A DNA stretch of 64,000 nt, from IMG/VR virus record IMGVR_UViG_3300010397_000044, positions 14,735-78,734 of that record. One strand, given 5' to 3'. Numbering within the stretch: position 1 is the stretch's first letter; each line of letters opens with the position of its first letter. Source of the stretch: a virus. Shown in pieces: positions 4,024-31,522 of this stretch. The translations under genes were made by a program, and so were the position numbers. The notes beneath the pieces were generated by a model. The model was not told the origin of the DNA and ran no database searches. It was given only the letters and a program-made list of their open reading frames with translations.

Positions 4024-5586
4024 ATGCGAAAAGCATCACTTTACGGCTCAGAAGCTAGGACTAAACTTGTAACCGGGATTGAGAAAATAGTCAAGGCCGT
4101 AGCCGTCACACTTGGCCCGTCAGGTAAGAATGTCATGATTGGCGGCAGCATGTGGACCGATACCGGAACAATTGCGCTGCCTAATATCTCCACAAAAGAC
4201 GGCTATCGTACAGCCAGATCGTTTGATGTTGATTGTCATTTTGAGCGTGTGGGAGTGGTGGCGGTAAAAGAAACCGCACAAAAGACTGTAGATGAGGCCG
4301 GAGATGGGACAAGCACAAGTTGTATTCTTGTAGAAGCTATTCTAAAAGAGGGACTTAAGCAAATAGAAGCAGGGGTAAATCCCATAGAAGTGAAGCGGAA
4401 TATCGACAAGGCGGTTGATATTTTTGTCACCAAATTAAGGAGTTTGGCTACACAAATAGGACAAGACTTCGATAAAATATTCAATGTAGCGACCGTTTCA
4501 GCCAATAACGATCCCGTAATAGGAAAATTAATCTCGGATGCTTTTAGGCAAATTGGTACGGAAGGGGTAGTGGATATTCAGGCAGGTGTTTCAAATGAAA
4601 CAGTAGTTAAGATTGCCAATGGGTACAAAATAAACAATGGTTATCTGAACAACATCTTTGTCAATAATGGCAGCAAGCAGAACTGCGAATTAGAGAACCC
4701 ACTTATTCTCTTATATCAAAATAAGATTACGCACCATACTCAGTTGGAAAGATCGTTACATATCGCTGCTGGGGCCGGACGCCCCATTTTAATAATTTGC
4801 GAAGATGCGGAAGGAGAGGGATTGGCTTATTTGGCAATTAATACAAAACAAGGGAAGATAAAAAGCTGCATCATCAAGGCCCCGGCTATCGGCGATGAAC
4901 GCAGGATTGAGATGGAAGATTTGGCCATTCTAACCGGTGGTAGTTATGTGTCCGACATTAGGGGTATAAACATCAAAGAAATTGAACCCAATAACCTTGG
5001 ACAGGCCGCCAAGATTATCGTCACCAAAGACGATACGGTTATTGTTTCTCCCGACACCGACAAAAGAGCATTGGAAGACCTGCTTAATGACCTTCGAATG
5101 AATCTGGCCCAATGCAAGAACGAGGATGAACGATACCCCATAGAAAAGAGAATAGCTAGATTACAAGGAGGGATAGCGGTCATTGAAGTAGGAGCGCCGA
5201 CAGAAACCGAAATGAAGGAGAAAATGGACCGGTTTGACGACGCCATTAGAGCCACAAAATCGGCTATTTCAGAGGGTTTCATAGTTGGAGGGGGCATGGC
5301 CTTTTTGAAGATAGATACGGGAAACGAGGTCATAGATAAGGCCAAAGAGAAGATTTTCGATCAGGTGTGTGAAAACGCCGGGGTAACGTCCGGGCCGTAC
5401 AAAGCTCAACTTAAAGAAGACAAGAACTTTAACTTAGGGTATAATGCCAAATCCGGGCTAGTGGAAGATTTAGTCGAAGCGGGAGTTATTGATCCGGTGA
5501 AAGTTATCCGTTGCGCTCTCCAAAATGCAGCCAGCAGCGCCGGAACAATCCTTACAACAGAAGCCCTTATTGTAGACGCCCCTTAA
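4024..5586 (+). CDS. groEL: chaperonin GroEL (phage-encoded)
   Basis: VAVTLGPSGKNV, TKDG, AGDGTST, ISANND-like, RIARLQGGIAVIEVGA, GVIDPVKV..ALQNAASSAG; no GGM tail. Confidence 0.97.
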   Translation: MRKASLYGSEARTKLVTGIEKIVKAVAVTLGPSGKNVMIGGSMWTDTGTIALPNISTKDGYRTARSFDVDCHFERVGVVAVKETAQKTVDEAGDGTSTSCILVEAILKEGLKQIEAGVNPIEVKRNIDKAVDIFVTKLRSLATQIGQDFDKIFNVATVSANNDPVIGKLISDAFRQIGTEGVVDIQAGVSNETVVKIANGYKINNGYLNNIFVNNGSKQNCELENPLILLYQNKITHHTQLERSLHIAAGAGRPILIICEDAEGEGLAYLAINTKQGKIKSCIIKAPAIGDERRIEMEDLAILTGGSYVSDIRGINIKEIEPNNLGQAAKIIVTKDDTVIVSPDTDKRALEDLLNDLRMNLAQCKNEDERYPIEKRIARLQGGIAVIEVGAPTETEMKEKMDRFDDAIRATKSAISEGFIVGGGMAFLKIDTGNEVIDKAKEKIFDQVCENAGVTSGPYKAQLKEDKNFNLGYNAKSGLVEDLVEAGVIDPVKVIRCALQNAASSAGTILTTEALIVDAP

Positions 5587-6431: not shown

Positions 6432-8873
6432 ATGGCCGAATTAACGCCGGGACAATCCCCTATTACTAATCCATTAGTAGAACGCTTCTTTTTGTCTCCG
6501 GCAGAGAAAGCCAGTCTTGAAAAGGGGAAAGCCATCGTTAAGGAATTTTACAGGCTCCAAACCTCCAATTCTGATAATAACAACTTCTTCAATCTCCGCA
6601 ATAAGCGGCAGGTGGAATTGCTTTTGTGGGCCAAGGGTAGCCAAAAAATGACCGAGTTCTTAGATTACATGAACGTGTCGGACGCAAACAAGGCTTGGAG
6701 CAATATAGACATGACCCAATCCAGGATTGGAGCCGAATTCGTTGGAACGCTGGTGGAAAGCATGGCAAAGAATAGAATCTACCCATGCGTTAAAGCGATA
6801 GATCAAGGCTCCTTAGATGAAAAAGAACAAAGGCTATTCGACGCACTCTTCAGGATGCACGAGGCGGAGACGGTAAATGCATTGCAGCAAGCGGCGGGAA
6901 TACAATTGGAGCCTACGACAGGATTTGTCCCAGATGATGAAATGGCGGCAAAGGTATATTTCGAAATGGAGGACCAATTGCCAAAGGAAATACGATTTGA
7001 GGCTATGCTAAAGCGCGTAATGGCAGATATAAGTTTTGAAACTGTCGCCAATCGAAAGACTTTGTTCGATCTAGTCGTTTTAAATGGCGGCTTTACCAAA
7101 ATAGAAAGATGCGGCCCCGGACAATATACCGTTCGAAAATGTATTACCCCCAACATGGTGTATAATTTCTTTCTCAGCGACAGCGGGAAGTTTGAAATAA
7201 CAGAGATTGGGGAATTTTACAATATCAAAGTAAAGGAGTTCAGACAGAAATTCCTAAAAACGGCAGACAACCCCAATGGTCTAACGGAAAAAGAGATTTA
7301 CGAACTAGCCAAACTGTCCACTAACAAAAACATAGGCCAATTTAATTATCAATGGAATGATGTATGGGCGCTCACTACTTATACATGGGAACGACCATAC
7401 GACGACTGTTCCATCCTTGTTTTGGACGTCGAAATAGATTGCGGCGAGGATGTATACTACGTTGAAAAGACTGATCCATATGGCCGCTCAAACATTACCC
7501 AGAAAAAGGGCATTCCATATCAGGAAAAAAGAAAAGACGGATCAGTTGTTCCCCAACCTGTCCCAGAAGGGACGCAAATCATAAAGAGGCGAAGGAATAG
7601 CTGGATGCGTGGGGTATATGCTCCATATGGGGATAAGATGCTATATTGGGGAGCGCCAGATATAATCATAACTCCTTTTACAAATACCTCCAAGCCACTA
7701 TCTTCTTATACAGCTAATATCTGTAATAATGACGGTGATTATGTTCCATCTCTCTTTGAAAGAGGCATGGAAATTCTGCGTGAATACCAATTGGCGAAGC
7801 TTAAAAGAAAGCAGCTAATAGCCAAGATAAAGCCATCGGGGATTAGGATTGACGTAGAGAGTGCCCGTAATATAGATTTGGGTAATGGGGATTCTATTGC
7901 ATGGGAAGAGGTCATGCGTATATACGATCAGACCGGTAACGAGGTGTGGTCCAGCCGTGGCATTGATCCATTGTCAAGAGAAGCGCCACCATTGAGCAAT
8001 ACTGTCCGGACGCCAGCCATTGAGGACGTAATAGGATTGACAAACATAATGGGCGGCATGATGCAGGAGCTTAGGCAGATTTGGGGCGTCCCATCCTATA
8101 GAGATGGCAGCGATGTGGGAGATAGAACACCGGCAAAATTGGCTGAAGGTCAAAACGAAAGCTCTTTCAATGTAACGGATTTCGTACAAAACGCCAATAA
8201 CCAACTTTGGCAAGAAACATTCTACAAACTTTGCCTACTTCATTGGAATGACATAGTAAAGGAAGAGCCGGAGTCAAAAGCGGACATGATCAATACAAGG
8301 TTTGACGTATCGGTAAGAATGAAATCCACAGACTATGAAAAACAATTGATAGAAAGAGATATTGACCGATATAGTCAAATGCCAGATGCAACTGGTAATC
8401 CTTCTCTTACTCTAAAGGACGCCATGATGATCCGGCAGATAGACGACTACAAACTAGCCTGTTATTATTTGGCGTCAACGGTTGAAAAGAACCAAAAACG
8501 TGCCCAGCAGGAAAAGGAACGACTCCAACAGCAAAATGCGAACGATCAACAGCAAAGCGCCATTGTAGCTGCCAAAGCCCAAGCGCAGGTAGATCAGCAA
8601 AAGAATGCTCAGCAAATGCAAATGGAGCAGGCTAAGTTTAAGCACGAAAAAGAAGTCGCTCTATTAAATGGAGTATTGGGGCTCATGCAAAAAACAGGCG
8701 GTGAAATACCGGACATTTTACAGCCGCTGGCCCAACAAATATTCCAAAACGTATCTATGGACGTAGTAATGGATAACATGGTTACAAAAATGGAGATTGG
8801 TCAAACCATGCAGGCCATGCAGCAATCACAACAGTCTCAGCAGCAAGAAGCGTCAGAACCTCAAATGCAGTAA
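6432..8873 (+). CDS. portal protein
   Basis: 813 aa; RIYPCVKAID, RIYDQTG motifs; Q-rich coiled-coil C-terminus; adjacent to terminase. Confidence 0.8.
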   Translation: MAELTPGQSPITNPLVERFFLSPAEKASLEKGKAIVKEFYRLQTSNSDNNNFFNLRNKRQVELLLWAKGSQKMTEFLDYMNVSDANKAWSNIDMTQSRIGAEFVGTLVESMAKNRIYPCVKAIDQGSLDEKEQRLFDALFRMHEAETVNALQQAAGIQLEPTTGFVPDDEMAAKVYFEMEDQLPKEIRFEAMLKRVMADISFETVANRKTLFDLVVLNGGFTKIERCGPGQYTVRKCITPNMVYNFFLSDSGKFEITEIGEFYNIKVKEFRQKFLKTADNPNGLTEKEIYELAKLSTNKNIGQFNYQWNDVWALTTYTWERPYDDCSILVLDVEIDCGEDVYYVEKTDPYGRSNITQKKGIPYQEKRKDGSVVPQPVPEGTQIIKRRRNSWMRGVYAPYGDKMLYWGAPDIIITPFTNTSKPLSSYTANICNNDGDYVPSLFERGMEILREYQLAKLKRKQLIAKIKPSGIRIDVESARNIDLGNGDSIAWEEVMRIYDQTGNEVWSSRGIDPLSREAPPLSNTVRTPAIEDVIGLTNIMGGMMQELRQIWGVPSYRDGSDVGDRTPAKLAEGQNESSFNVTDFVQNANNQLWQETFYKLCLLHWNDIVKEEPESKADMINTRFDVSVRMKSTDYEKQLIERDIDRYSQMPDATGNPSLTLKDAMMIRQIDDYKLACYYLASTVEKNQKRAQQEKERLQQQNANDQQQSAIVAAKAQAQVDQQKNAQQMQMEQAKFKHEKEVALLNGVLGLMQKTGGEIPDILQPLAQQIFQNVSMDVVMDNMVTKMEIGQTMQAMQQSQQSQQQEASEPQMQ

Positions 8874-13874: not shown

Positions 13875-14804
13875 ATGGCAGACGCCTTAACAACAGAGGC
13901 CCCATTAAAAAAGAAAGGGGCAGAGAAGAGCAATGAAGACCGCTATTTGGAAATGCAATTCGATACTTATAAGAAGTACGTATTTCAATTAGCGGAAGAA
14001 AATCCAGAACGAGAATTGCCGGTCATAGATGTGGCTTCAAGACGACCACTACCCCACAAAAAGTTCAAACCCTATCAGAACGTTGTATTTACCTCTCAGA
14101 TCATTTGGAAGGGACAAAGAAGAGTAATTAGGTATTATGATGGGTGCTCCTCTATATTCGTAGACGAACAGCCAAAGGAAAAAGAAACCATAGATCAATT
14201 TATTGCTCAAACCAAACGTAGACAGTTTTTAGATGGGAAGTTGGTTGTAGAAGGTAATGAACGCATGCTGCTTTTATATCTGTATATATGCGGATGGAAT
14301 GCAGAAAGCCCGTTCAGAACCAAATCGGCTAACATGATATTCGTAGCTATGGACGGTTTGAAAATAGCCACCAAGGAATCTGAAAAGCTGGACGAAACTG
14401 AAAAGGCGTTGAAATTCGCTAAGGAGGCATCTGAGCAAAAAATGAGGATTCATGCGGAATACTTAGGTATACCGGTTAAAGATGAGGATAGCGACAATGA
14501 CCTGACCGAAGAAGAAATCCGGCCTATTTACCGTAAAGAGGCACTAAGAAATTCGGCTGAGTTCATACGTAGTTATGGAGACAAGTCAATTGAGGTAAAA
14601 ATATATATCCAGAAGGCCGTTCAAACCGGACAAATAATTCGCCCTAAAGGCTCCAATAAAGTAGCGTGGAAGAACGGGAATGAGATATTGGATGTGTCTG
14701 GGGTGGCGAGTATGTCAGGAGTGGAAGAAAAATTACTTGAATTTTCACAACTGCCAGAAGGTGAAGAGTTTTTAATCCAATTGAAAGCTATCTATAGCGA
14801 ATAA
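13875..14804 (+). CDS. conserved morphogenesis-module protein
   Basis: RVIRYYDGCSSIFVDEQ motif resembles the post-capsid gene of Bacteroidota podoviruses (from recall). Confidence 0.5.
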   Translation: MADALTTEAPLKKKGAEKSNEDRYLEMQFDTYKKYVFQLAEENPERELPVIDVASRRPLPHKKFKPYQNVVFTSQIIWKGQRRVIRYYDGCSSIFVDEQPKEKETIDQFIAQTKRRQFLDGKLVVEGNERMLLLYLYICGWNAESPFRTKSANMIFVAMDGLKIATKESEKLDETEKALKFAKEASEQKMRIHAEYLGIPVKDEDSDNDLTEEEIRPIYRKEALRNSAEFIRSYGDKSIEVKIYIQKAVQTGQIIRPKGSNKVAWKNGNEILDVSGVASMSGVEEKLLEFSQLPEGEEFLIQLKAIYSE

Positions 14805-21718: not shown

Positions 21719-23209
21719 ATGGCAGAAGTAGGAGAAATTCCGGGTGGCGGAAGGCCTTGGGGAGACGCTTTCTTAGTTCAGACACCGGCCTTGGACAGGT
21801 TCGCTGAACGCCAGCAGCAGCAGATGCAGCAACTAAATATGCAGCGTCAGCAAAGCGCTGTCCGGGAATCTCAGCAATTGGATGGATTGATGAATAAAGA
21901 ATTGGCTAAAGTTAGAAGTGTTGATATCCCTTCTGTCTTTGATGCTTATGGCAAATATAAAAGTCTTAAGCAAGCAACTTTATTTGACAAGAGATTAACG
22001 TCCAATCCACGAGAATTAGCCAAGGCTCAAATGCAGGCTAATGCAGCCATGGGAGATTTGCAAGCACTTATAAATAAAAGCACTCAATTGAATGATTTTC
22101 AAAAACAACTAGTTGGAGAAAGAAAAACTAAGTTTAATCTTTTTGCCGATGATTTTGGAGATAAAGTAAATACATTGAACAATACCCCTATTGACAAACT
22201 AGGAGAAGATTACACTAATCCAGATTTTTATAGATACAAAGGAGCCAATACAGACTTCGGTAAAATGGAATTGACCGCAGCAGGTCAGCCTAAACCAACA
22301 TTCGAAAAGGTAGAGCGGATAAATAACCTTCAAACCAGAAGAACACCTATTTTATTTGGGAATACACCTACGCAGTTTTTTGAGACGTTCAAGGGGAATT
22401 TGTCACAAAGAATACCCAACAGAGACGCAGCAGCAGCATGGGAGAATATACCAGATGAACAAAAGATAGCAGTAGATAAACAATTCGCCGCTATTTCGCC
22501 AGATAAATGGAAGCAATGGGGATTGGAAGATGCTCCAAATATACAAGCATCCAATCCAAATGACCCCGCTGAAAACTATGCAGCCTATCGGGCCAAATTG
22601 TACGCCATCAATGCTACCCCAAAACAAGGTAGATATAGGGACGAAACGGATCAGCAGGCTAAGTTAAATATGCAGTTTAATCAAAAATCTGCATTGGAAG
22701 CTATTAGGCAAAATAACAGGGTAGCACTCAAGCAGCTTAGTCACACGTTTAAACAAATGGATCAGGAGCAACAAGGCTCTAAACTAGATGAATTAGTTTC
22801 GGGTATGGTAGAGGATGCCAGAAAGTCTACTACAAAGGCATTTTATAAAACAGAGGATGGTAAAGTAGAAAGACGGCATATTATTAAATTAAGTCCTCTC
22901 CTTAAGAATCAATTCAAATTTAAAGATGATAAAGGGCATGATATTTATCCGGATCAGCTTCAAATGAATGAGGACGGCACCGAGTTTACGCCAGTATTCT
23001 ACAATAGCGAAGGAAAAGAAATGAGAGGAGTAAATAAAAATCTAAGTCAGGCTATGACTGGACCGGAATTTAAAGCTATTATAGGTAAAGCTTTATTGGG
23101 AGTAAAAGAGGCAAGTAAAGGCGGTGTTAATATAGACAATAGCGATGATGATGAGCCATCTAAGTCAGCGGCTCCCACTCAAACTAAAAAGAAAATAGCA
23201 GGATGGTAG
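21719..23209 (+). CDS. putative ejection/cargo protein
   Basis: Q-rich helical protein between the muzzle and the giant cargo gene. Confidence 0.5.
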   Translation: MAEVGEIPGGGRPWGDAFLVQTPALDRFAERQQQQMQQLNMQRQQSAVRESQQLDGLMNKELAKVRSVDIPSVFDAYGKYKSLKQATLFDKRLTSNPRELAKAQMQANAAMGDLQALINKSTQLNDFQKQLVGERKTKFNLFADDFGDKVNTLNNTPIDKLGEDYTNPDFYRYKGANTDFGKMELTAAGQPKPTFEKVERINNLQTRRTPILFGNTPTQFFETFKGNLSQRIPNRDAAAAWENIPDEQKIAVDKQFAAISPDKWKQWGLEDAPNIQASNPNDPAENYAAYRAKLYAINATPKQGRYRDETDQQAKLNMQFNQKSALEAIRQNNRVALKQLSHTFKQMDQEQQGSKLDELVSGMVEDARKSTTKAFYKTEDGKVERRHIIKLSPLLKNQFKFKDDKGHDIYPDQLQMNEDGTEFTPVFYNSEGKEMRGVNKNLSQAMTGPEFKAIIGKALLGVKEASKGGVNIDNSDDDEPSKSAAPTQTKKKIAGW

Positions 23210-26200
23210 AGGAAGATGTTATAGAAGCTCCGCCTATAGGGGACGAACAAGCCCCACCAACCCCGCCACAAGATGCGGATGAAAAGTTACGTGCATTACA
23301 TTCGGCTGTTTCGCATGATTATGATATTGGCGACTTTGATACTTTCAAGAAAAAACTACAAGACGCTTCCAAAAGAAAGGCTTTCTATGACGGTATTGGT
23401 AATGAATATCAATTAGGTAGCTATGATGATTTTGAGAAGAAAATAGGATTCGTAACACCGCCAGAACATCACGTTCAACATAGTTCATTGCAGGATATAC
23501 GGCATTTGAACGATATAGCAACCGCTCCAATAGATCTTCCGCAAGGAACGGCTGCGCCTATAAATACAGACGAACTATATGCTACCAAAAAGAAAGAAAA
23601 AGATGCATTCGCCAGTCAATTAAATGCACAATCCAAGATGCTTGGCGATCAATGGGGCATTGATCCTAAAATAGCCAAACAAGCTGTAATTGACTTCCCA
23701 GATGAGAACGATGAGGAAAAGGTAAAGGGGTTTGCTCAATTGTATAAAGACAATCCGATTTATTATAGGAGATTAAAGGATGAAAATGATATCAGAACTG
23801 CTATAGCAAAAAGCCCAACCGGAGGGATCAACGACGCTAATATCTACAATCATTTGCAAGATGCGCAGAACTACGATCAATTGCAGCACAATATCGGCAT
23901 TCAGCAAGAACTAATGACTAAAAGTGGTCTAGGTCAGGAGTATTGGGAAAAGATGAAGCAAGCCAAGGCTCCATTGATAAATACGCTTGATCCGGGTCTC
24001 CTTCATCAATATTGGAATAGCCAAGATCATAAATTAGGGTTAACCGACTTTCAGTATGCCGGGCTTGAGACACTAAAAATGTTTCAGCCGGAGTTATATA
24101 AGCAATACAAGTCCATCATAATGGAGAATAAGGGATTGGATGAAGGCGGTAATCCAAGGCCGGAAGGACAAGGTAAAAAAGGGTATGAATATGATAGAGG
24201 GGTAGAAAATGTACTATACAGCATTGAAAGACAAGGGAGACAGAATACGGCTCAATATATATCCCAGCATCAAGTTGAGTTAGGGAAGCAATTGGAGAAG
24301 GTCAAAAATGATTATCAAACTAGGATAAATAATAGCAAAGACCCAGAAGAGCAAAAGGCATTAGTGGAAGAGTTTAAAGCCAATCCCCTTATAGCAGAAG
24401 CCGGTAAATTAGAAGAGGGCCAACAGGCAATAGACTACGCCCAAAGTGAAGATCAAAGGCGGTTCCCTTTGAATTATTCCGACATGTCCACTAAGTTGGT
24501 AAAGGATGCCATGGATGGCACAACCGGGTTGATAGGGAACACCGGAAAGTTCTTTGAGGGTGTCCTGACGGGAGCTGGCCAAGCTTCGGATAATACCATT
24601 CGGTTTATAAAAAACACGTTTGTTAATATATTGGGTTCGGAAAGTTCAAAAGCCGCCCAACATGCGAAGGATATAGGTCACCAATCTTTAACAGAATTAG
24701 CCAATTACGAGCCATCTTCTTATACAGGAACTCAAAGCCCCTTGCTGATACCCGATGACCTCAAGAAGTCGGTACAGACCATAATGGATGATAGCTCTTT
24801 GTCAAATGCAGAGAAGGAGCAAAATGCCATATCATTAGTCCGGGATAACTTTGATAACATAAAAATCAATCCTAAGGCTGGTCAGCAAAACTTGACCGGG
24901 AAAGCGGCTTTATTCACTGCTGCGAACACTTTGGGTCAGATCATAGGCATAGCCGATCAGTCGTTATTGATGGGGGGATTATTGGGTAATGTAACGAAGG
25001 TTCAACAATTGACGAATGCCTTAGTTCCTATGTATGCTTCAACGCAAAATCAACTATACGAACAGGCATTGGCTAGGGGGGATGAGAAACCGTTGCTAAA
25101 ATCCAGTATTGACGCGGCAATTATCTCCCTAGCCTCACTTATCAATCCGGACTATAAAGTAATAAAAGGAATGGTAGGGGCGGAAACCGGTTTGGGTAAA
25201 GTTATCGCTGGTGTAGATGAGGCTACTTGGAATAAAGTGTTGTCCGAAAATTCCCCCATCGTAAGCAAGTTGATGGCCGGGACTAAGGCAACCGCGCGTC
25301 AGTTAGGACTTGCCAATCTACAATATGGTCTTATTGTGCCAACCGCCCAATACGTTGTCCATAAGAACGTCTTAAACGAAAACGCTAATTTGGGCGACAT
25401 GATATTGGACGGCATGAAACAAGCTACGATATCAATGGCTATCCCAGCGTTAGCGCATGGTATTTGGGGGGGCATCAGAGCTAATCAAGTTAATCCACAG
25501 CAGAAATATGCCTTAGTCGAAGCCGGATTGCATCCACAAGAAAATATTGACCTTATTAATGGCCAGATTGAGCGTGGTCAAATCATGCCATCCGAAGCCG
25601 ATAAAATAAAGGAAACCATAAAGCAGACAGGAGAAATCCTTAAAAATGGCGAGTTTATAAAGACGGACGGCACTCCTATGAATGAAAATGAGGTAGCGGA
25701 TGTAGTTTATAACCAGCTTCGTAAAAGAGCCTTAGATGGTAAGCTACGCAATGCGGCAGACCCCAATAAGCCCCTAATTGAAGCCAAAATACATGAGATA
25801 AATCAGGATATATCTGACCTGCATACCTCCGACGAACAAAAGCATAAGACGGAACTAAATAAGTTGCTGACCGACAATTTGGATAGGATCAAAAAGAACA
25901 TGCCTGCATTCGAAGGACCTATTAGAGATGCTATTGCAGAGAATCGGCCAGAAGAAGTCATGCAGATGATAGCCGATCAAGCAACCGAAACGACCAAAGT
26001 TGATGGAAAGGAAGTTAGTTCAAGATCGGCCACAGAAGAAATATTCGGGAAAGAATTGGTTGCGAAGGCTATTGAAATATCAAAGAAAAAGCCTGAAAAA
26101 CCAGCGAATATAGAGCCGGAGGCGAAACCGGCTTCTATATCCGTTATCCGTCCCGAACAAATCAATAAACCTGAAACAATAACCATAAAACCACAAGAAG

Positions 26201-28884
26201 ATGCCCTACAAATCAATGGCCCAAGCGGCCTACTTCAATATCCACAAGAAGGAATTGGAGGCGAAGGGAGTGGACGTGGAGGAGTGGAACCAAGCCAGCA
26301 AGGGGAAATCCCTACCGGAGAAGGTGGACAACAAGGACCACAAGCAGAAGGTGGCAGCAATGTTAGCAGCCAAGAAACGCCAATCGGGCCTCCTGGGAAA
26401 GAAGTAGCAAACGATGAGCTCCCTTTTGGTCATTTGCCAGTCGGTATTTCCCATGAACGGTTTTCCGATAGGGCGAATGCCGAATTAGGGCTTGCCCCTC
26501 CTGAACGCGGTGAAGGGGTAACCTTAGAGCAGGCTATTAACAAGGGAAGAGAATTGATAAAAGAAGGGGTAAATCCGGATGATGTAGTGGCGCAATTCAA
26601 AAAGGATGGGCGGATTGATTCGTCTGCCATGAGCGTAGTACGGGCTAAATACGAGCAATTGGTAAAAGAAACCAATTATGCAGAGGATAGATATGGGAAA
26701 GATAGTCCAGAATACAAAGACGCAGTAAACGAAGAATTGAAATGGAGGGATGAGGTCATTAAACCTATGCAGACTGAATGGCATAAAATAGGCATGACCC
26801 AACAAGGCGTATCCGATTTGGATGCCGGAACGATCACGGGGATTCGTCGTGCCGTAAAAGAGGTATCGGGTAAAGAGTTAACCCCCGAACAGGAAAAGAA
26901 GGCTAAGGAACTATCCGACAAGGTTAAATCCCTCACAGACAGAGACAAGCAATTGCAAGCCAAAATAGACAAACTATTGTCGGAAAATGAGAAGCTAAAA
27001 GACGATAAGACTATAAAAGAAAAAGCTAAAAGTTTAGCAGATAAAATACGCAAAGGGAAGACCAATCGCCCGGATTCTTTTTCGGCTGCTACGCCAGCGT
27101 CATTAATTTGGGATGCGGCGGTAGAAATAGTCGCAAGTACGGTAGAGGCAGGCGGCACGTTGGCGCAAGCTGTAGCCGATGGAGTAGCTCATATTAAAGA
27201 ATCCGAATGGTATAAAGGACTGAATGATGAAGAAAAGAAGGTGGCCGAAAGTGAATTTACGGATGCCCATTTGGATGTTGAGCGACCAGAAAAGAATATG
27301 GCAGAAAGATTTGTGGCTAAAAAGGACAACAAATTTACTGCTGATGAAGCCAAAGATATATGGAGTTACATCAAAGACAATTATTTGGATAAGGGAACAG
27401 AAATCCCAGATGCTATAAAAAATACGGCTAATGATTTGGGCCTTAGCGCAGAACAAGTGATCCATGCAATGAGCACTCCTAAAGGCGCAAGAGAGATTAC
27501 AACCGAAATGTTCAAAACGCAATACGAAAGGAGGAAGGCTATAAATTCAGCAAAATATTTTGTAGCCAATGCTGATAAATCTGCGGTGTCGAAAGCCTTG
27601 AACAAACTGCCGTCCATCTTCTTTAACCTGAAAACATGGGGCCACGGTACGGTAGGTAACATTACCCATGCCGGGCCTAATATCTTCCGCCCATCCACTT
27701 GGAAAGCATATTGGCCTAATGTAATGAAGTCGTTTGGTTTGGCATATGGGTCAACAGCCAATTATGAGAAAGCTATAACTATTTTAAAGGCAAGCCCAAA
27801 TTTTACTGAGTGGTTGCAAGCTGGATTAGCCGCTGATCCGCAGAAGACATATGATGAATATCAATTATTAGGCAAGCCAAAGAAGGACACAAAAACCGGG
27901 CAAGCTATCCAGTGGATGAACGAAACCGGTACCCGTGGTTTTGCTGGCCTCAATTTCATGCGGTACGACATGGCCCAAATGCTATATAATAAGGCTTCGG
28001 ATGCCGCAAAAGCTGATCCTGAATTTAGGCAATATGTCGCCGAATTGGTTAACCATGCAACCGGGCATAGCGAATGGTCACACAAAGTACCCAAAGCCAT
28101 AAAGGTCATAACCTTTGCACCGGGGTTGGAGTTGTCAAGATGGCAGCGTATGATAACCGACCCGGTAAAAGCAGGGAAAACGTTCCTTTCGTGGGATAAG
28201 TCTACAGATGCAGAAAAGGCAGCGGCTAAAATTGTGGCAGCTTCTGCCGGGGAAAAAATAGCAGTATATGGGACTCTTCTGGCTGCCAATGCTGGACTAT
28301 TGGCGGCAACTGGTTCAAAACAAAGCGTCAACGTATCCGATCCTACCAAAAGTGATTGGATGCGTTTCAAATTTGCCAATAAAACGTTAGACGTGAGCGG
28401 AAACGTATTATCGCCATATAGATTATTGGCTGTATTGGTGGGGCAGGCTTATTTAGCGAACACAGCAGACGCTAAAGATATTAAGGGAAAACCGGGCGAT
28501 AAAGACGCCAATACTTTAACGCAACAAGCTAGATATAAGCTTTCCCCTATAGCTGGTACAGTGACCGATATTGGAACCGGAACAGATGCAATGGGTAACG
28601 TGCTGCCATGGTCAAATGTAAAACCGTCTGCTGGACGGCATAAGTTGACATGGAAGGAATTAATAGCTAAGGAAGCTCTTCCTATTCCTGTTGCGGCTGG
28701 TTTAGAAGCATACTGGCATTCAATGGAAGAAAATGGTATGTCGGAAAGTCAAATCAGTTCAATCATGAATGGATTATTATTGTTTGGGGTGGAAGGATTG
28801 ACTGGGGCTAAATTACAGCCAGATTATTCATTGGATAAGGACAAAGAAAAATCAAAAGCAAGAACAACTTCAAGAGCTAAATGA
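23203..28884 (+). CDS. giant internal virion / DNA ejection protein (1893 aa)
   Basis: Size and position; repeated D(I/L)G(D/S)(F/Y)DxF N-terminal motif; largely helical. Confidence 0.6.
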   Translation: MVEEDVIEAPPIGDEQAPPTPPQDADEKLRALHSAVSHDYDIGDFDTFKKKLQDASKRKAFYDGIGNEYQLGSYDDFEKKIGFVTPPEHHVQHSSLQDIRHLNDIATAPIDLPQGTAAPINTDELYATKKKEKDAFASQLNAQSKMLGDQWGIDPKIAKQAVIDFPDENDEEKVKGFAQLYKDNPIYYRRLKDENDIRTAIAKSPTGGINDANIYNHLQDAQNYDQLQHNIGIQQELMTKSGLGQEYWEKMKQAKAPLINTLDPGLLHQYWNSQDHKLGLTDFQYAGLETLKMFQPELYKQYKSIIMENKGLDEGGNPRPEGQGKKGYEYDRGVENVLYSIERQGRQNTAQYISQHQVELGKQLEKVKNDYQTRINNSKDPEEQKALVEEFKANPLIAEAGKLEEGQQAIDYAQSEDQRRFPLNYSDMSTKLVKDAMDGTTGLIGNTGKFFEGVLTGAGQASDNTIRFIKNTFVNILGSESSKAAQHAKDIGHQSLTELANYEPSSYTGTQSPLLIPDDLKKSVQTIMDDSSLSNAEKEQNAISLVRDNFDNIKINPKAGQQNLTGKAALFTAANTLGQIIGIADQSLLMGGLLGNVTKVQQLTNALVPMYASTQNQLYEQALARGDEKPLLKSSIDAAIISLASLINPDYKVIKGMVGAETGLGKVIAGVDEATWNKVLSENSPIVSKLMAGTKATARQLGLANLQYGLIVPTAQYVVHKNVLNENANLGDMILDGMKQATISMAIPALAHGIWGGIRANQVNPQQKYALVEAGLHPQENIDLINGQIERGQIMPSEADKIKETIKQTGEILKNGEFIKTDGTPMNENEVADVVYNQLRKRALDGKLRNAADPNKPLIEAKIHEINQDISDLHTSDEQKHKTELNKLLTDNLDRIKKNMPAFEGPIRDAIAENRPEEVMQMIADQATETTKVDGKEVSSRSATEEIFGKELVAKAIEISKKKPEKPANIEPEAKPASISVIRPEQINKPETITIKPQEDALQINGPSGLLQYPQEGIGGEGSGRGGVEPSQQGEIPTGEGGQQGPQAEGGSNVSSQETPIGPPGKEVANDELPFGHLPVGISHERFSDRANAELGLAPPERGEGVTLEQAINKGRELIKEGVNPDDVVAQFKKDGRIDSSAMSVVRAKYEQLVKETNYAEDRYGKDSPEYKDAVNEELKWRDEVIKPMQTEWHKIGMTQQGVSDLDAGTITGIRRAVKEVSGKELTPEQEKKAKELSDKVKSLTDRDKQLQAKIDKLLSENEKLKDDKTIKEKAKSLADKIRKGKTNRPDSFSAATPASLIWDAAVEIVASTVEAGGTLAQAVADGVAHIKESEWYKGLNDEEKKVAESEFTDAHLDVERPEKNMAERFVAKKDNKFTADEAKDIWSYIKDNYLDKGTEIPDAIKNTANDLGLSAEQVIHAMSTPKGAREITTEMFKTQYERRKAINSAKYFVANADKSAVSKALNKLPSIFFNLKTWGHGTVGNITHAGPNIFRPSTWKAYWPNVMKSFGLAYGSTANYEKAITILKASPNFTEWLQAGLAADPQKTYDEYQLLGKPKKDTKTGQAIQWMNETGTRGFAGLNFMRYDMAQMLYNKASDAAKADPEFRQYVAELVNHATGHSEWSHKVPKAIKVITFAPGLELSRWQRMITDPVKAGKTFLSWDKSTDAEKAAAKIVAASAGEKIAVYGTLLAANAGLLAATGSKQSVNVSDPTKSDWMRFKFANKTLDVSGNVLSPYRLLAVLVGQAYLANTADAKDIKGKPGDKDANTLTQQARYKLSPIAGTVTDIGTGTDAMGNVLPWSNVKPSAGRHKLTWKELIAKEALPIPVAAGLEAYWHSMEENGMSESQISSIMNGLLLFGVEGLTGAKLQPDYSLDKDKEKSKARTTSRAK
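26201..26407 (+). CDS. small basic protein nested out of frame in the giant gene
   Basis: MPYKSMAQAAYF...GVDVEEWNQASKGKSLPEKV resembles a recurrent MPFKSxAQ small phage protein family; A-rich leader. Confidence 0.6.
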   Translation: MPYKSMAQAAYFNIHKKELEAKGVDVEEWNQASKGKSLPEKVDNKDHKQKVAAMLAAKKRQSGLLGKK

Positions 28885-31015: not shown

Positions 31016-31522
31016 ATGGCGTTAAGCCCCTCATTTACTCTTTCCGGGACATCTGATCCAAGTTCCCTGACCCTGACCGATACTAGTACCGGAACGGATG
31101 GCGCGGTCGTCGGCAGAAAGATAAATCTTTACGACGTTTCAAATAATTTATTTGGATCATCTCCCTACGATTTCCCCAACTTCCCTGGCACGACCTCAAT
31201 TACCATAAATCCTTTTTTAAAGGATAAATCCATTAACGTTGTTGTTACATGGGTTGACAATGTGGGAACCGTATTATATACCGCGTCTAAAATCTATGCT
31301 TCAACTGGATATGGGGAACAATTTTATTCCGGGCTCACAAGAAATTTAACCTCTCAGCCGGGTATAGCCAATGATCAACAATTCAGGGAGAACTTTAGTT
31401 GGTTGAGAACGCTGTTAGATTCAACCGTACTAGCCATCAATAACATGCAGGATATTATAGCAGCCCAAAACTGTATAGATCAATATAACGGAATGATTCA
31501 AAATCAAAACGATTTCTTCTAA
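31016..31522 (+). CDS. putative tail hub / fibre-docking protein
   Basis: SSLTLTDTSTG N-terminal beta domain with helical C-terminus; start of the fibre operon. Confidence 0.45.
   Translation: MALSPSFTLSGTSDPSSLTLTDTSTGTDGAVVGRKINLYDVSNNLFGSSPYDFPNFPGTTSITINPFLKDKSINVVVTWVDNVGTVLYTASKIYASTGYGEQFYSGLTRNLTSQPGIANDQQFRENFSWLRTLLDSTVLAINNMQDIIAAQNCIDQYNGMIQNQNDFF

Follow-up and report, generated by a model that had tools for sequence, protein, structure and literature searches.

A conserved small phage protein nested in the +1 frame of a giant virion-module gene, with signs of selection on both reading frames

Is a 68-aa ORF that lies out of frame inside a giant phage gene a gene in its own right, and if so, which of the two is the older? 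The window analysed here is a stretch of 64,000 nt from a virus (IMG/VR record IMGVR_UViG_3300010397_000044, positions 14,735 to 78,734). Its inner ORF runs from an ATG start to a TAG stop and is enclosed entirely by an outer ORF of 1893 aa, which satisfies the definition of a nested pair, and the offset of 2998 nt between the two starts places it in the +1 frame of the outer ORF (Table 1). The original prediction had described such a 68-aa +1-frame ORF with an A-rich leader; this was confirmed, and the leader it gave before the ATG, aaccataaaaccacaagaag, was correct. Short contigs from two other studies, one of soil (2022) and one of root (2025), matched positions 26122–26397 and 26135–26285 and agreed without difference with the stretches of the inner ORF that they covered; because they reproduce the ORF, it is not an assembly artefact. 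The inner ORF was also the longest same-strand alternative-frame ORF within the giant gene, with a runner-up of 64 aa. Length by itself would not be decisive evidence for a gene, and we took homology to be decisive.

Table 1. Features of the nested locus and its surroundings in the window
Feature	Position	Strand	Basis
Inner gene, 68 aa, MPYKSxAQ...EWNxASKGKxLP family	26201..26407	+	ORF, homology, profile
Inner conserved core, codons 1–42; the same bases read DALQINGPSGLLQYPQEGIGGEGSGRGGVEPSQQGEIPTGE in the outer frame	26201..26326	+	Family alignment, pN/pS
Inner variable basic helical tail (8 K/R, 2 D/E) and stop codon	26327..26407	+	
Outer gene, giant virion-module protein, 1893 aa	23203..28884	+	Single continuous ORF
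Inner leader, A-rich, unstructured, within the outer CDS (outer residues INKPETITIKPQE)	26165..26200	+	
Outer conserved C-terminal part	26407..28884	+	Alignment of five giant proteins
G_GGA_AAG heptamer, phased with the inner frame and two codons 5' of the inner stop, probably incidental	26395..26401	+	
168-aa gene of the same conserved module	31016..31522	+	blastp to the follower of the stand-alone small gene

A word-index search of 5.8 billion sequences returned 206 matches to the inner protein, with a best E of 2e-16 and identities of 60–90% over the first ~42 residues, so that the likeness to a recurrent stand-alone small phage protein, which the original prediction had pointed out, proved right. 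An HMM search, which it had proposed as a check, likewise uncovered a large family of stand-alone homologues: profile searching of 1.84 billion proteins gave 686 cluster representatives at E ≤ 1e-3 and 312 at E ≤ 1e-10, and 394 places of the family were confirmed in IMG/VR. The exact 68-aa sequence was absent from all of the protein collections searched, and gene callers had therefore missed the nested gene. We refer to this uncharacterised family as MPYKS and define it by our alignments A1 and A2. Among 20 aligned members 21 residues were invariant, and the window protein was 59–69% identical to 19 family members. It carries the M-P-Y/F-K-S-x-A/K-Q motif at residue 1 (its N-terminus is MPYKSMAQ, of which M1, P2, Y3, S5, A7 and Q8 are invariant in A1) and every one of the core residues F12, N13, L19, E20, G23, V24, V26, E28, W29, N30, S33, K34, G35, L38 and P39. 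With 68 aa in total and a tail of eight K/R against two D/E, it also has the short basic tail of the family, in which stand-alone proteins total ~45–70 aa; measured copies were 50–72 aa when nested and 43–66 aa when stand-alone. An AlphaFold2 model of the inner protein (pLDDT 86) placed helices at residues 6–14, 16–21, 26–33 and 45–65. The family consists of a three-helix N-terminal domain of ~40 residues with a basic tail, and is old, widespread and very conserved: its copies remained 60–90% identical among phages of 31–61% GC whose other proteins had nearly diverged past recognition, which suggests an important role in virion assembly or infection, the function being inferred. The conservation of the module was far above that of any phage partner. 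Two tryptic peptides, SMAQAAYFNIHK and GVDVEEWNQASK, are unique to the inner protein of the window.

No significant match to the small protein was found in Pfam, PHROGs or the PDB sequences, by Foldseek against PDB and BFVD, or by a wide VIA-align search (best fold Z 2.9, best BFVD E 0.28), and tblastn against 50,697 deposited phage genomes returned nothing at E ≤ 10. The protein atlas gave nothing significant either; the closest cluster with a name was DUF3008, at a score of 0.81 and for 15% of one cluster, which amounts to no more than a weak lead from a language model. DUF3008 (PF11450) comprises small proteins of phages and bacteria that begin with MP.KS..Q and resemble MPYKS in the N-terminal motif and in a K-G-x-LPE motif. 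Membership was not supported: the window protein had no Pfam match at E ≤ 1 (gathering score 24 bits), the Pfam model matched none of 20 family members at E ≤ 10, and nothing was found in five module-bearing records.

We compared the locus across about 100 related phage contigs, comprising 80 IMG/VR loci plus the window and 16 MAG loci. Among the 81 former loci the small gene was stand-alone in 53, formed the N-terminus of a longer protein in six and was nested in a giant ORF in 22, whereas among the MAG loci three were nested and 13 stand-alone. In all 22 nested loci the inner ORF was the +1 frame of the outer one and started with ATG. The proposal that homologous giant genes would keep the +1 frame open was thereby upheld, nesting being found in 21 other IMG/VR and three MAG loci. 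The outer-frame signature 'NAIQEPS...VLQHPQEG' occurred in 10 of 35 giant-protein relatives, and in-frame stops lay 1–13 codons 5' of the ATG in most nested loci. Stand-alone copies occupied several different genomic contexts, and in nearly every longer protein with a profile match the module began at residue 1. The classical model of a young gene overprinted de novo, taxonomically restricted and lacking stand-alone homologues, does not fit the stand-alone copies (53/81 IMG/VR and 13/16 MAG loci). The tree of the 44-residue core was unresolved, with eight state changes, and did not exclude a single origin of nesting.

The giant gene has virion structural genes on one side and tail genes on the other, and 'ejection protein' as a name for its product is inferred from size and gene order only. 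The protein had no Pfam or PDB match, its protein cluster contained only two fragments, and megablast of the gene against the collection of 50,697 deposited phage genomes found nothing. Its N-terminal part is variable, its C-terminal part of ~825 aa is conserved, and a Gly/Glu/Gln linker separates the two, the conserved part being 46% identical to that of locus L004, 43% to L028 and 31–36% to L058, L041 and L046. When five giant proteins were aligned, the alignable C-terminal part started with LPFG.LPVGISHE directly after the nested gene, and downstream of that gene the outer proteins were homologous and roughly colinear in 19 of the 22 nested loci. In L028, L041, L046 and L018 a stand-alone small gene directly follows the giant gene; other stand-alone copies adjoin the large terminase and portal genes, and fused forms adjoin a 'DNA ejection protein'. 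The 168-aa gene of the window is a homologue of the 172-aa gene directly after the stand-alone small gene in low-GC relatives (blastp identity 29–32%, E 1e-16 to 1e-20), the match lying, in over 20 loci, ~200 nt 3' of the small gene, and both this gene and a 289-aa gene of the window matched genes that follow the stand-alone copy. The family is usually found stand-alone in the head/packaging or tail/ejection module, or as the N-terminus of larger virion-module proteins.

From these comparisons we consider it very probable that the dual coding inferred in the original prediction is genuine, with the giant-gene mRNA read in two frames over 26201–26407, while there is no direct evidence of either product. 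Ribosomes from 23203 would read these bases as a flexible Gly/Glu/Gln/Pro linker connecting the variable N-terminal to the conserved C-terminal part of the giant protein, and other ribosomes would begin at the internal ATG, behind its A-rich unstructured leader, and make a separate 68-aa protein. As far as sequences can tell, the small-protein family, its repeated nesting in one and the same frame and the selection acting on both readings are established, and these support the inference; direct evidence of translation is lacking.

Initiation at ATG 26201 is itself inferred, without RNA, ribosome-profiling or proteomic data for this uncultured soil phage. The genes of this phage have A-rich leaders and no Shine-Dalgarno sequence. 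With a matrix built from 39 gene starts, the inner leader scored 6.15, above 87% of true starts, a score that only 0.1% of the 978 internal ATGs attained. The folding energy within 30 nt on either side was -5.5 kcal/mol at the inner start, compared with means of -5.0 at true starts and -9.5 at internal ATGs. Low-GC nested loci had A-rich leaders, and the high-GC nested loci L026, L042 and L020 had canonical AGGAGG-type Shine-Dalgarno sequences within the outer CDS. No Bacteroidota-type promoter motif (TTTG) was visible by eye in the 100 nt upstream of 26201.

A rival reading is that a once-independent small gene was swallowed and now serves only as raw material for the linker, its ORF being an untranslated relic. 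The pN/pS of the inner frame was 0.135 between the window and L004, whose outer proteins are only 46% identical, 0.26 between the window and L058, 0.18 between L044 and L050, and 0.06–0.2 within the clade of L025, L061, L064, L067, L071 and L076, with the caveat that overlapping frames bias standard pN/pS. Among nested copies, diversity was highest at the third inner codon position and lowest at the second, which is the outer third position. Diversity at the inner third position was 0.34 when nested versus 0.55 otherwise, in line with the suppression of synonymous variation that dual coding had been expected to cause. Judged by these substitution patterns, purifying selection acts on the inner frame while it is nested. 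The persistence of inner pN/pS at 0.06–0.26 in nested clades while their outer proteins diverged to 31–87% identity speaks against a relic, as do the ATG kept in 22/22 nested loci, nested lengths close to the stand-alone ones and the retained Shine-Dalgarno or A-rich leaders; a relic would, moreover, quickly gain stops in this K/E/N-rich frame.

Close strains bear on the same point in both directions. In a ~98% identical strain, 27 of the 33 listed flank differences fell at outer third positions, whereas five of the seven listed differences in the inner ORF fell at inner third positions, within its tail (26327..26407), and four of these five were silent in the inner protein yet altered the outer one, inner-synonymous change that is not expected of a relic. 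In a 58-kb rhizosphere contig with ~98% identical flanks, on the other hand, window positions 26206–26304 (inner codons 2–35) were replaced by 84 unlike letters, the sequence of which was unread, with a 15-nt length difference that kept the outer frame. The inner core may be destroyed there, and if it is, a very close relative would either do without the nested gene or have swapped it. A search for the replacement variant in viral and metagenome contigs, by a gapped pattern across the joint, found no match. This near-identical strain, the clear selection on the outer frame and the lack of expression data leave the relic a small chance, and we regard it as improbable.

A joint product is another way in which the inner frame could be used. 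A -1 slip at the G_GGA_AAG heptamer, on which the lambda G/GT slippery site also relies, would fuse the MPYKS module to the conserved C-terminal part, a product mimicking the natural N-terminal fusions in which the module is almost always residue 1. The heptamer has the right phase just before the inner stop, and the nested gene always lies just 5' of the conserved C-terminal part. Slippery heptamers were present, however, in only 7 of the 22 nested copies, as against 9 of the 45 stand-alone ones, and had no common position, several of them arising simply from conserved K-G-K codons, and stand-alone copies stop with nothing to fuse to. Programmed frameshifting is accordingly a highly improbable explanation.

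The outer frame could instead be open by chance and untranslated across the small gene, so that three genes, upstream, small and downstream, were present. In L035, L044 and L050 the outer ORF starts only ~50 codons 5' of the small gene, and in some phages, therefore, the N- and C-terminal parts can be encoded separately. There is, nevertheless, no stop codon to end an upstream gene, and the homology between the L004 and window proteins extends, in a single frame, to both flanks of the nested gene. Stand-alone copies had a mean of 4.9 stops over 42 codons in the outer-equivalent frame, which was open in only 2 of 44, and the exact probability of an open outer frame, calculated for the inner protein in question with the codon usage of the locality, was 1.2e-5 in the window and similarly small, from 7e-8 to 9e-3, in the other nested loci. 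T occupied 5% of inner third positions in nested copies versus 30% in stand-alone ones, even where T would make no stop, which shows selection on the encoded outer residues. With the outer frame also under selection in nested loci, the three-gene arrangement is highly improbable. Nor can a chance ORF with spurious resemblance be maintained, for all the unremarkable length and the second alternative-frame ORF in the same gene, given the E of 2e-16 against 5.8 billion proteins, the 21 residues invariant in 20 members and the hundreds of independent homologues.

The avoidance of T at inner third positions, where G was raised in nested copies, yields a Gly/Glu/Gln linker. The outer text over nested genes contained 16% G, 17% E and 12% Q, and no W or C. 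In the window, the low-complexity G/E/Q/P text that had been pointed out, quoted correctly as DALQING...EPSQQG, reached 71% G+E+Q+P+S over 69 outer codons compared with 31% in the whole protein. That the inner gene dictates the linker, as had been supposed, was borne out by a pN/pS of ~2 in the outer frame versus 0.29 in the inner frame. In giants that lack the nested gene (L028, L041), the equivalent place is occupied by a disordered linker unlike this one.

For the origin of the dual coding, we propose that the giant gene came to read across the older small gene in the -1 frame. Such read-through would have needed the loss of about five stops, and the loss of T-starting codons as well would have left a disordered linker. 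The small gene is, by inference, probably the older partner, a pre-existing gene engulfed rather than one newborn in an old gene; the direction rests on distribution and composition, with no rooted tree. For its function, a part in virion assembly, or a fate as a packaged or ejected protein alongside the giant-protein module, in either case with DNA contacts made by the basic tail, is a tentative suggestion that we rather doubt, being weakly inferred and without support from homology. Unlikely, if not to be neglected, is the broader idea that an ancient, almost invariant module of ~40 residues was engulfed by giants, has long been nested (outer identity down to 22–30%) and moves between the nested, stand-alone-after-giant and fused states. 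The dose of the small protein may be set by ribosome traffic on the outer frame, and the near-invariant DNA may be a recombination joint at which giant ejection proteins exchange their N- and C-terminal halves, neither of which has been shown; if there is such a joint, the patchy divergence and the replaced core in the 98% identical strain would be its traces.

The arrangement resembles the spanin genes of lambda, where Rz sets the precedent of a phage gene that encloses a smaller one, Rz1, completely and on the same strand, in the +1 frame (PMC5295617). The arrangement also varies across phages, the Rz/Rz1 function pair being found embedded, overlapped or separate (PMC5295617). Rz1, however, is a lipoprotein that partners the product of its host gene in lysis (PMC5295617), whereas the inner protein here has no signal sequence, lies in a virion-module gene and has no shown interaction with the outer protein; unlike in Rz/Rz1, what the outer frame encodes across the shared bases is a low-complexity linker and not a functional domain. 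Overprinting of the phiX174 type (E in D; B and K in A/C) also reads one DNA in two frames, and viral overprinting shares the adaptive conflict seen as suppressed synonymous change and one compositionally biased, disordered product (PMC8227390, PMC3494269). There the nested frame is young, de novo and taxonomically restricted (PMC8227390, PMC3494269), whereas the nested MPYKS gene is widespread and conserved with stand-alone homologues in many phage lineages, and it is the reading of the host gene over it that looks derived. MPYKS nesting occurs in tailed-phage genomes of 35–80 kb, in contrast to the tiny genomes of the phiX174 type. Out-of-frame remodelled families similarly reuse the sequence of a known gene in another frame of a different protein, but usually lose the original frame (PMC8788219); MPYKS loci select both in one genome.

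Nested out-of-frame genes are known in phages and are usually read as young; here the nested gene appears to be old and the host reading derived. In giant phage proteins, the linker text 'NAIQEPS...VLQHPQEG...VEPSQQGE' reliably marks a hidden gene, and if ancient modules have indeed been engulfed in this way, about a quarter of the occurrences of the family would be invisible to gene callers. With its free, nested and fused states comparable across about a hundred genomes, the family offers an unusually clean natural experiment on frame sharing. It reveals which synonymous sites are sacrificed, how the CDS of one protein accommodates the start signals of another, and how the -1 frame of a K/E/N-rich protein is pre-adapted to become a disordered linker.

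The window makes up the final 64 kb of a 78.7-kb IMG/VR virus record, which is complete. Its genes include GroEL-like, portal, large-terminase, capsid-like and tail genes, and three of its ORFs are giant (1339, 1893 and 2101 aa). The inner ORF lies entirely within the second of these, in its +1 frame, and the coordinates, leader and peptide texts given for it in the original prediction were all correct. The nested-gene observation was confirmed. In the outer frame the same bases read DALQING...PPGKEV, where G, E, Q, P and S make up 71% of the residues compared with 31% of the entire outer protein. This stretch was also found in soil, rhizosphere and root metagenomes.

Features located in the window and members of the sequence groups described in the text
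Feature	Position	Strand	Description
Inner ORF	26201-26407	+	ATG start, 68 aa, TAG stop
Outer ORF	23203-28884	+	1893 aa
G_GGA_AAG heptamer	26395-26401		inner-frame phase, two codons before inner stop
GroEL-like chaperonin, phage-encoded	4024-5586		phrog_5725, E 4.5e-123; directly upstream of portal and terminase genes
Motif of ~27 nt	~8166-8200 (locus coordinates, not window)		in IMG/VR loci L009, L014, L015, L018, L021, L022, L029, L030, L032, L039-L041, L046, L051, L052
Proteins with 45-residue module at extreme N-terminus			protein hits P0156, P0164, P0188, P0195, P0269; IMG/VR loci L007, L008, L059, L072
Giant relatives bearing PF00300			protein hits P0301, P0304, P0306, P0308, P0310-P0316, P0318, P0320, P0322, P0323, P0325

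Searches with the inner protein in Pfam, PHROGs and, by tblastn, deposited phage genomes gave no match. A large metagenomic protein collection yielded 206 matches (best E 2e-16), which were 60–90% identical across the first ~42 residues and nearly all annotated as separate genes of 45–60 aa. Among 20 family members, 21 residues were invariant (M1, P2, Y3, S5, A7, Q8, F12, N13, L19, E20, G23, V24, V26, E28, W29, N30, S33, K34, G35, L38 and P39). A profile search of 1.84 billion representatives captured 686 clusters at E<=1e-3, of which 312 reached E<=1e-10; among the profile matches listed, many were long (150–1019 aa), the module nearly always started at residue 1, and those that start at their own first residue have the module from residue 1. 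Family copies were confirmed at no fewer than 394 places in IMG/VR. In the AlphaFold2 model (pLDDT 86), a small helical domain predicted with confidence (helices 6–14, 16–21 and 26–33) precedes a long basic helix, and there is no significant structural likeness among solved or predicted viral structures. Judged from these sequence matches, the ORF is a member of a real protein family, and a literature search found no paper on this nested gene or family.

We classed the arrangement of the small gene in 80 retrieved loci and the window, where 53 copies stand alone, 6 form the N-terminus of a longer in-frame protein and 22 are nested in an ORF on the same strand, 427 to 4407 codons long. All 22 nested copies start with ATG and are +1 relative to the frame of the outer ORF, and because an in-frame stop lies 1–13 codons 5′ of that ATG in most nested loci, entry into the inner frame by frameshifting is disfavoured. 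Further copies on MAG contigs were nested likewise in 3 of 16 cases. The guess that 'DAIQxQS-type' linkers conceal the same gene also held, since, of 35 relatives of the giant protein retrieved through the linker region of the window, 10 contained its outer-frame text (N-A-I-Q-E-P-S ... V-L-Q-H-P-Q-E-G ... V-E-P-S-Q-Q-G-E). In two high-GC loci, L073 (8001–8150) and L095 (6001–6162), the small gene lies under a short open span of 123–161 codons in the same −1 frame, which could be an intermediate or a chance overlap. The window's G_GGA_AAG heptamer is identical to the lambda G/GT slippery site, and a −1 slip there would fuse the module to the conserved C-terminal part of the outer protein; the other nested loci do not conserve this heptamer.

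Across the 22 nested copies, pN/pS was 0.29 and median dN/dS 0.17 in the inner frame, while the same bases gave a pN/pS of ~2 in the outer frame. Diversity was highest at inner third positions and lowest at inner second positions, which are the outer third positions; accepted substitutions are therefore governed by the inner codon structure. The constraint was also seen within groups sharing the nested state by descent. In locus L004, with the nested gene in the same place, the outer protein is 46% identical to that of the window across 897 aa and the inner core 90% identical (pN/pS 0.135; 14.4 changes over 22.2 synonymous sites and 8.6 over 97.8 non-synonymous sites). Inner-frame pN/pS was 0.26 for the window and L058, 0.24 for L003 and L069, 0.18 for L044 and L050, and 0.06–0.20 within the clade of L025, L061, L064, L067, L071 and L076.

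A 58-kb rhizosphere contig ~98% identical to the window differs in the flank mostly at outer third positions (27 of 33 listed differences) and in the inner ORF's tail mostly at inner third positions (5 of 7), four of these five being silent in the inner frame and changing the outer protein. In the same contig, window positions 26206–26304 (99 bases, inner codons 2–35) are replaced by 84 unlike letters that preserve the outer frame. Either an allele swap or the loss of the inner gene may lie behind this replacement, which is the chief argument against the inner gene being essential. Elsewhere in the giant gene, 25410–25632 shows ~30 differences in 220 nt, nearly all at outer third codon positions, followed by a single difference in the next 570 nt; with the gene otherwise nearly identical between strains, this looks like a recombination patch, and the giant gene is therefore mosaic.

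The outer frame is also under selection. In stand-alone copies the equivalent frame contains a mean of 4.9 stops over the 42-codon core and is open in only 2 of 44 distinct copies; TAT-AAA at codons 3–4, for instance, creates an outer-frame TAA, where every nested copy uses TAC. Conditioned on the inner protein and locus codon usage, the outer frame would be open with an exact probability of 1.2e-5 in the window and between 7e-8 and 9e-3 in the other nested loci. At inner third positions where no stop would arise, T accounts for 5% in nested copies versus 30% in low-GC stand-alone copies, so that outer-frame selection exceeds stop avoidance, and G is three- to five-fold higher in nested copies. 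Owing to this base choice, the nested outer text is rich in Gly (16%), Glu (17%) and Gln (12%); Trp and Cys are absent and Phe, Tyr and Met almost absent. Synonymous variation was suppressed as predicted, with third-position diversity falling from 0.55 in stand-alone to 0.34 in nested copies. Lys, Glu, Asn, Gly, Ala and Gln are abundant in the inner protein, and since their codons start with A, G or C, the −1 frame is hydrophilic by construction and thus suited to a linker role. In L028 and L041 the giant gene contains no nested gene; at the corresponding point its protein has a disordered acidic linker of unrelated sequence, followed at once by the conserved LPFG..VGISHE that opens the C-terminal part.

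High-GC nested loci have a canonical Shine-Dalgarno at proper spacing within the outer coding sequence, such as aaggagggggaacaaaATG (L026) and acaggaggagaatcaaATG (L042), and low-GC loci have A-rich leaders. None of the 39 gene starts of the window phage has a Shine-Dalgarno; in the Bacteroidota style of translation start, they follow A-rich leaders (46% A) with weak structure. Scored with a matrix derived from these 39 starts, the inner leader ranked above 87% of them and was matched by only 0.1% of 978 internal ATGs. Its start region resembles true starts in being unstructured (−5.5 kcal/mol; the mean is −5.0 at true starts and −9.5 at internal ATGs). The dual-coding interpretation is supported, with translation of the inner gene inferred.

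The nested state covers only part of the family's distribution. In four loci (L028, L041, L046 and L018) a stand-alone copy immediately follows the giant gene; others sit between or beside the genes for large terminase and portal in phages that are unrelated, and fused forms occur in the tail/ejection module, adjoining a 'DNA ejection protein'. Downstream of the nested gene, 19 of the 22 outer proteins are homologous, and in L035, L044 and L050 the outer gene starts only ~50 codons upstream of the small gene and corresponds to the C-terminal part alone. The simplest reading is that the small gene came first: an old gene would have been engulfed when the conserved C-terminal-part gene extended upstream over it, and the extended gene would then have joined an N-terminal part in many lineages. 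This direction remains an inference, since the 44-residue core yields too weak a tree for events to be counted.

No characterised homologue of the small protein was found. The conserved module runs giant gene, small gene, ~170-aa gene, ~175-aa gene and another giant gene, and includes the window's 168-aa and 289-aa genes. In low-GC stand-alone loci, a near-identical motif of ~27 nt (TATAGCCATAAATTTCTTATATTTGGG and variants) right after the small gene and before a 172-aa gene is a candidate promoter or other regulatory site. Among the partners fused to the N-terminal module are NUDIX, a C-terminal DUF6321 and a region with weak likeness to zinc peptidases (HExxH). Many giant-protein relatives contain a histidine-phosphatase domain (PF00300), absent from the window's protein, which suggests that giant proteins carry enzymatic cargo in modular fashion; the name 'ejection protein' for the outer gene is inferred from size and gene order only. 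Membership of the module and the fusion partners favour, tentatively and short of an even chance, the view that the small protein acts in virion assembly or is itself packaged or ejected, in which case its basic tail would lie on DNA. Its domain is near-invariant across phages of 31–61% GC, a sequence pattern that points to a ligand which is itself conserved, and not to a quickly evolving partner from the phage.

Rz/Rz1 and phiX174 D/E are likewise nested out-of-frame phage genes. What is unusual for such pairs is that the nested member here is conserved and probably the older gene, and that one family occurs free, nested and fused.
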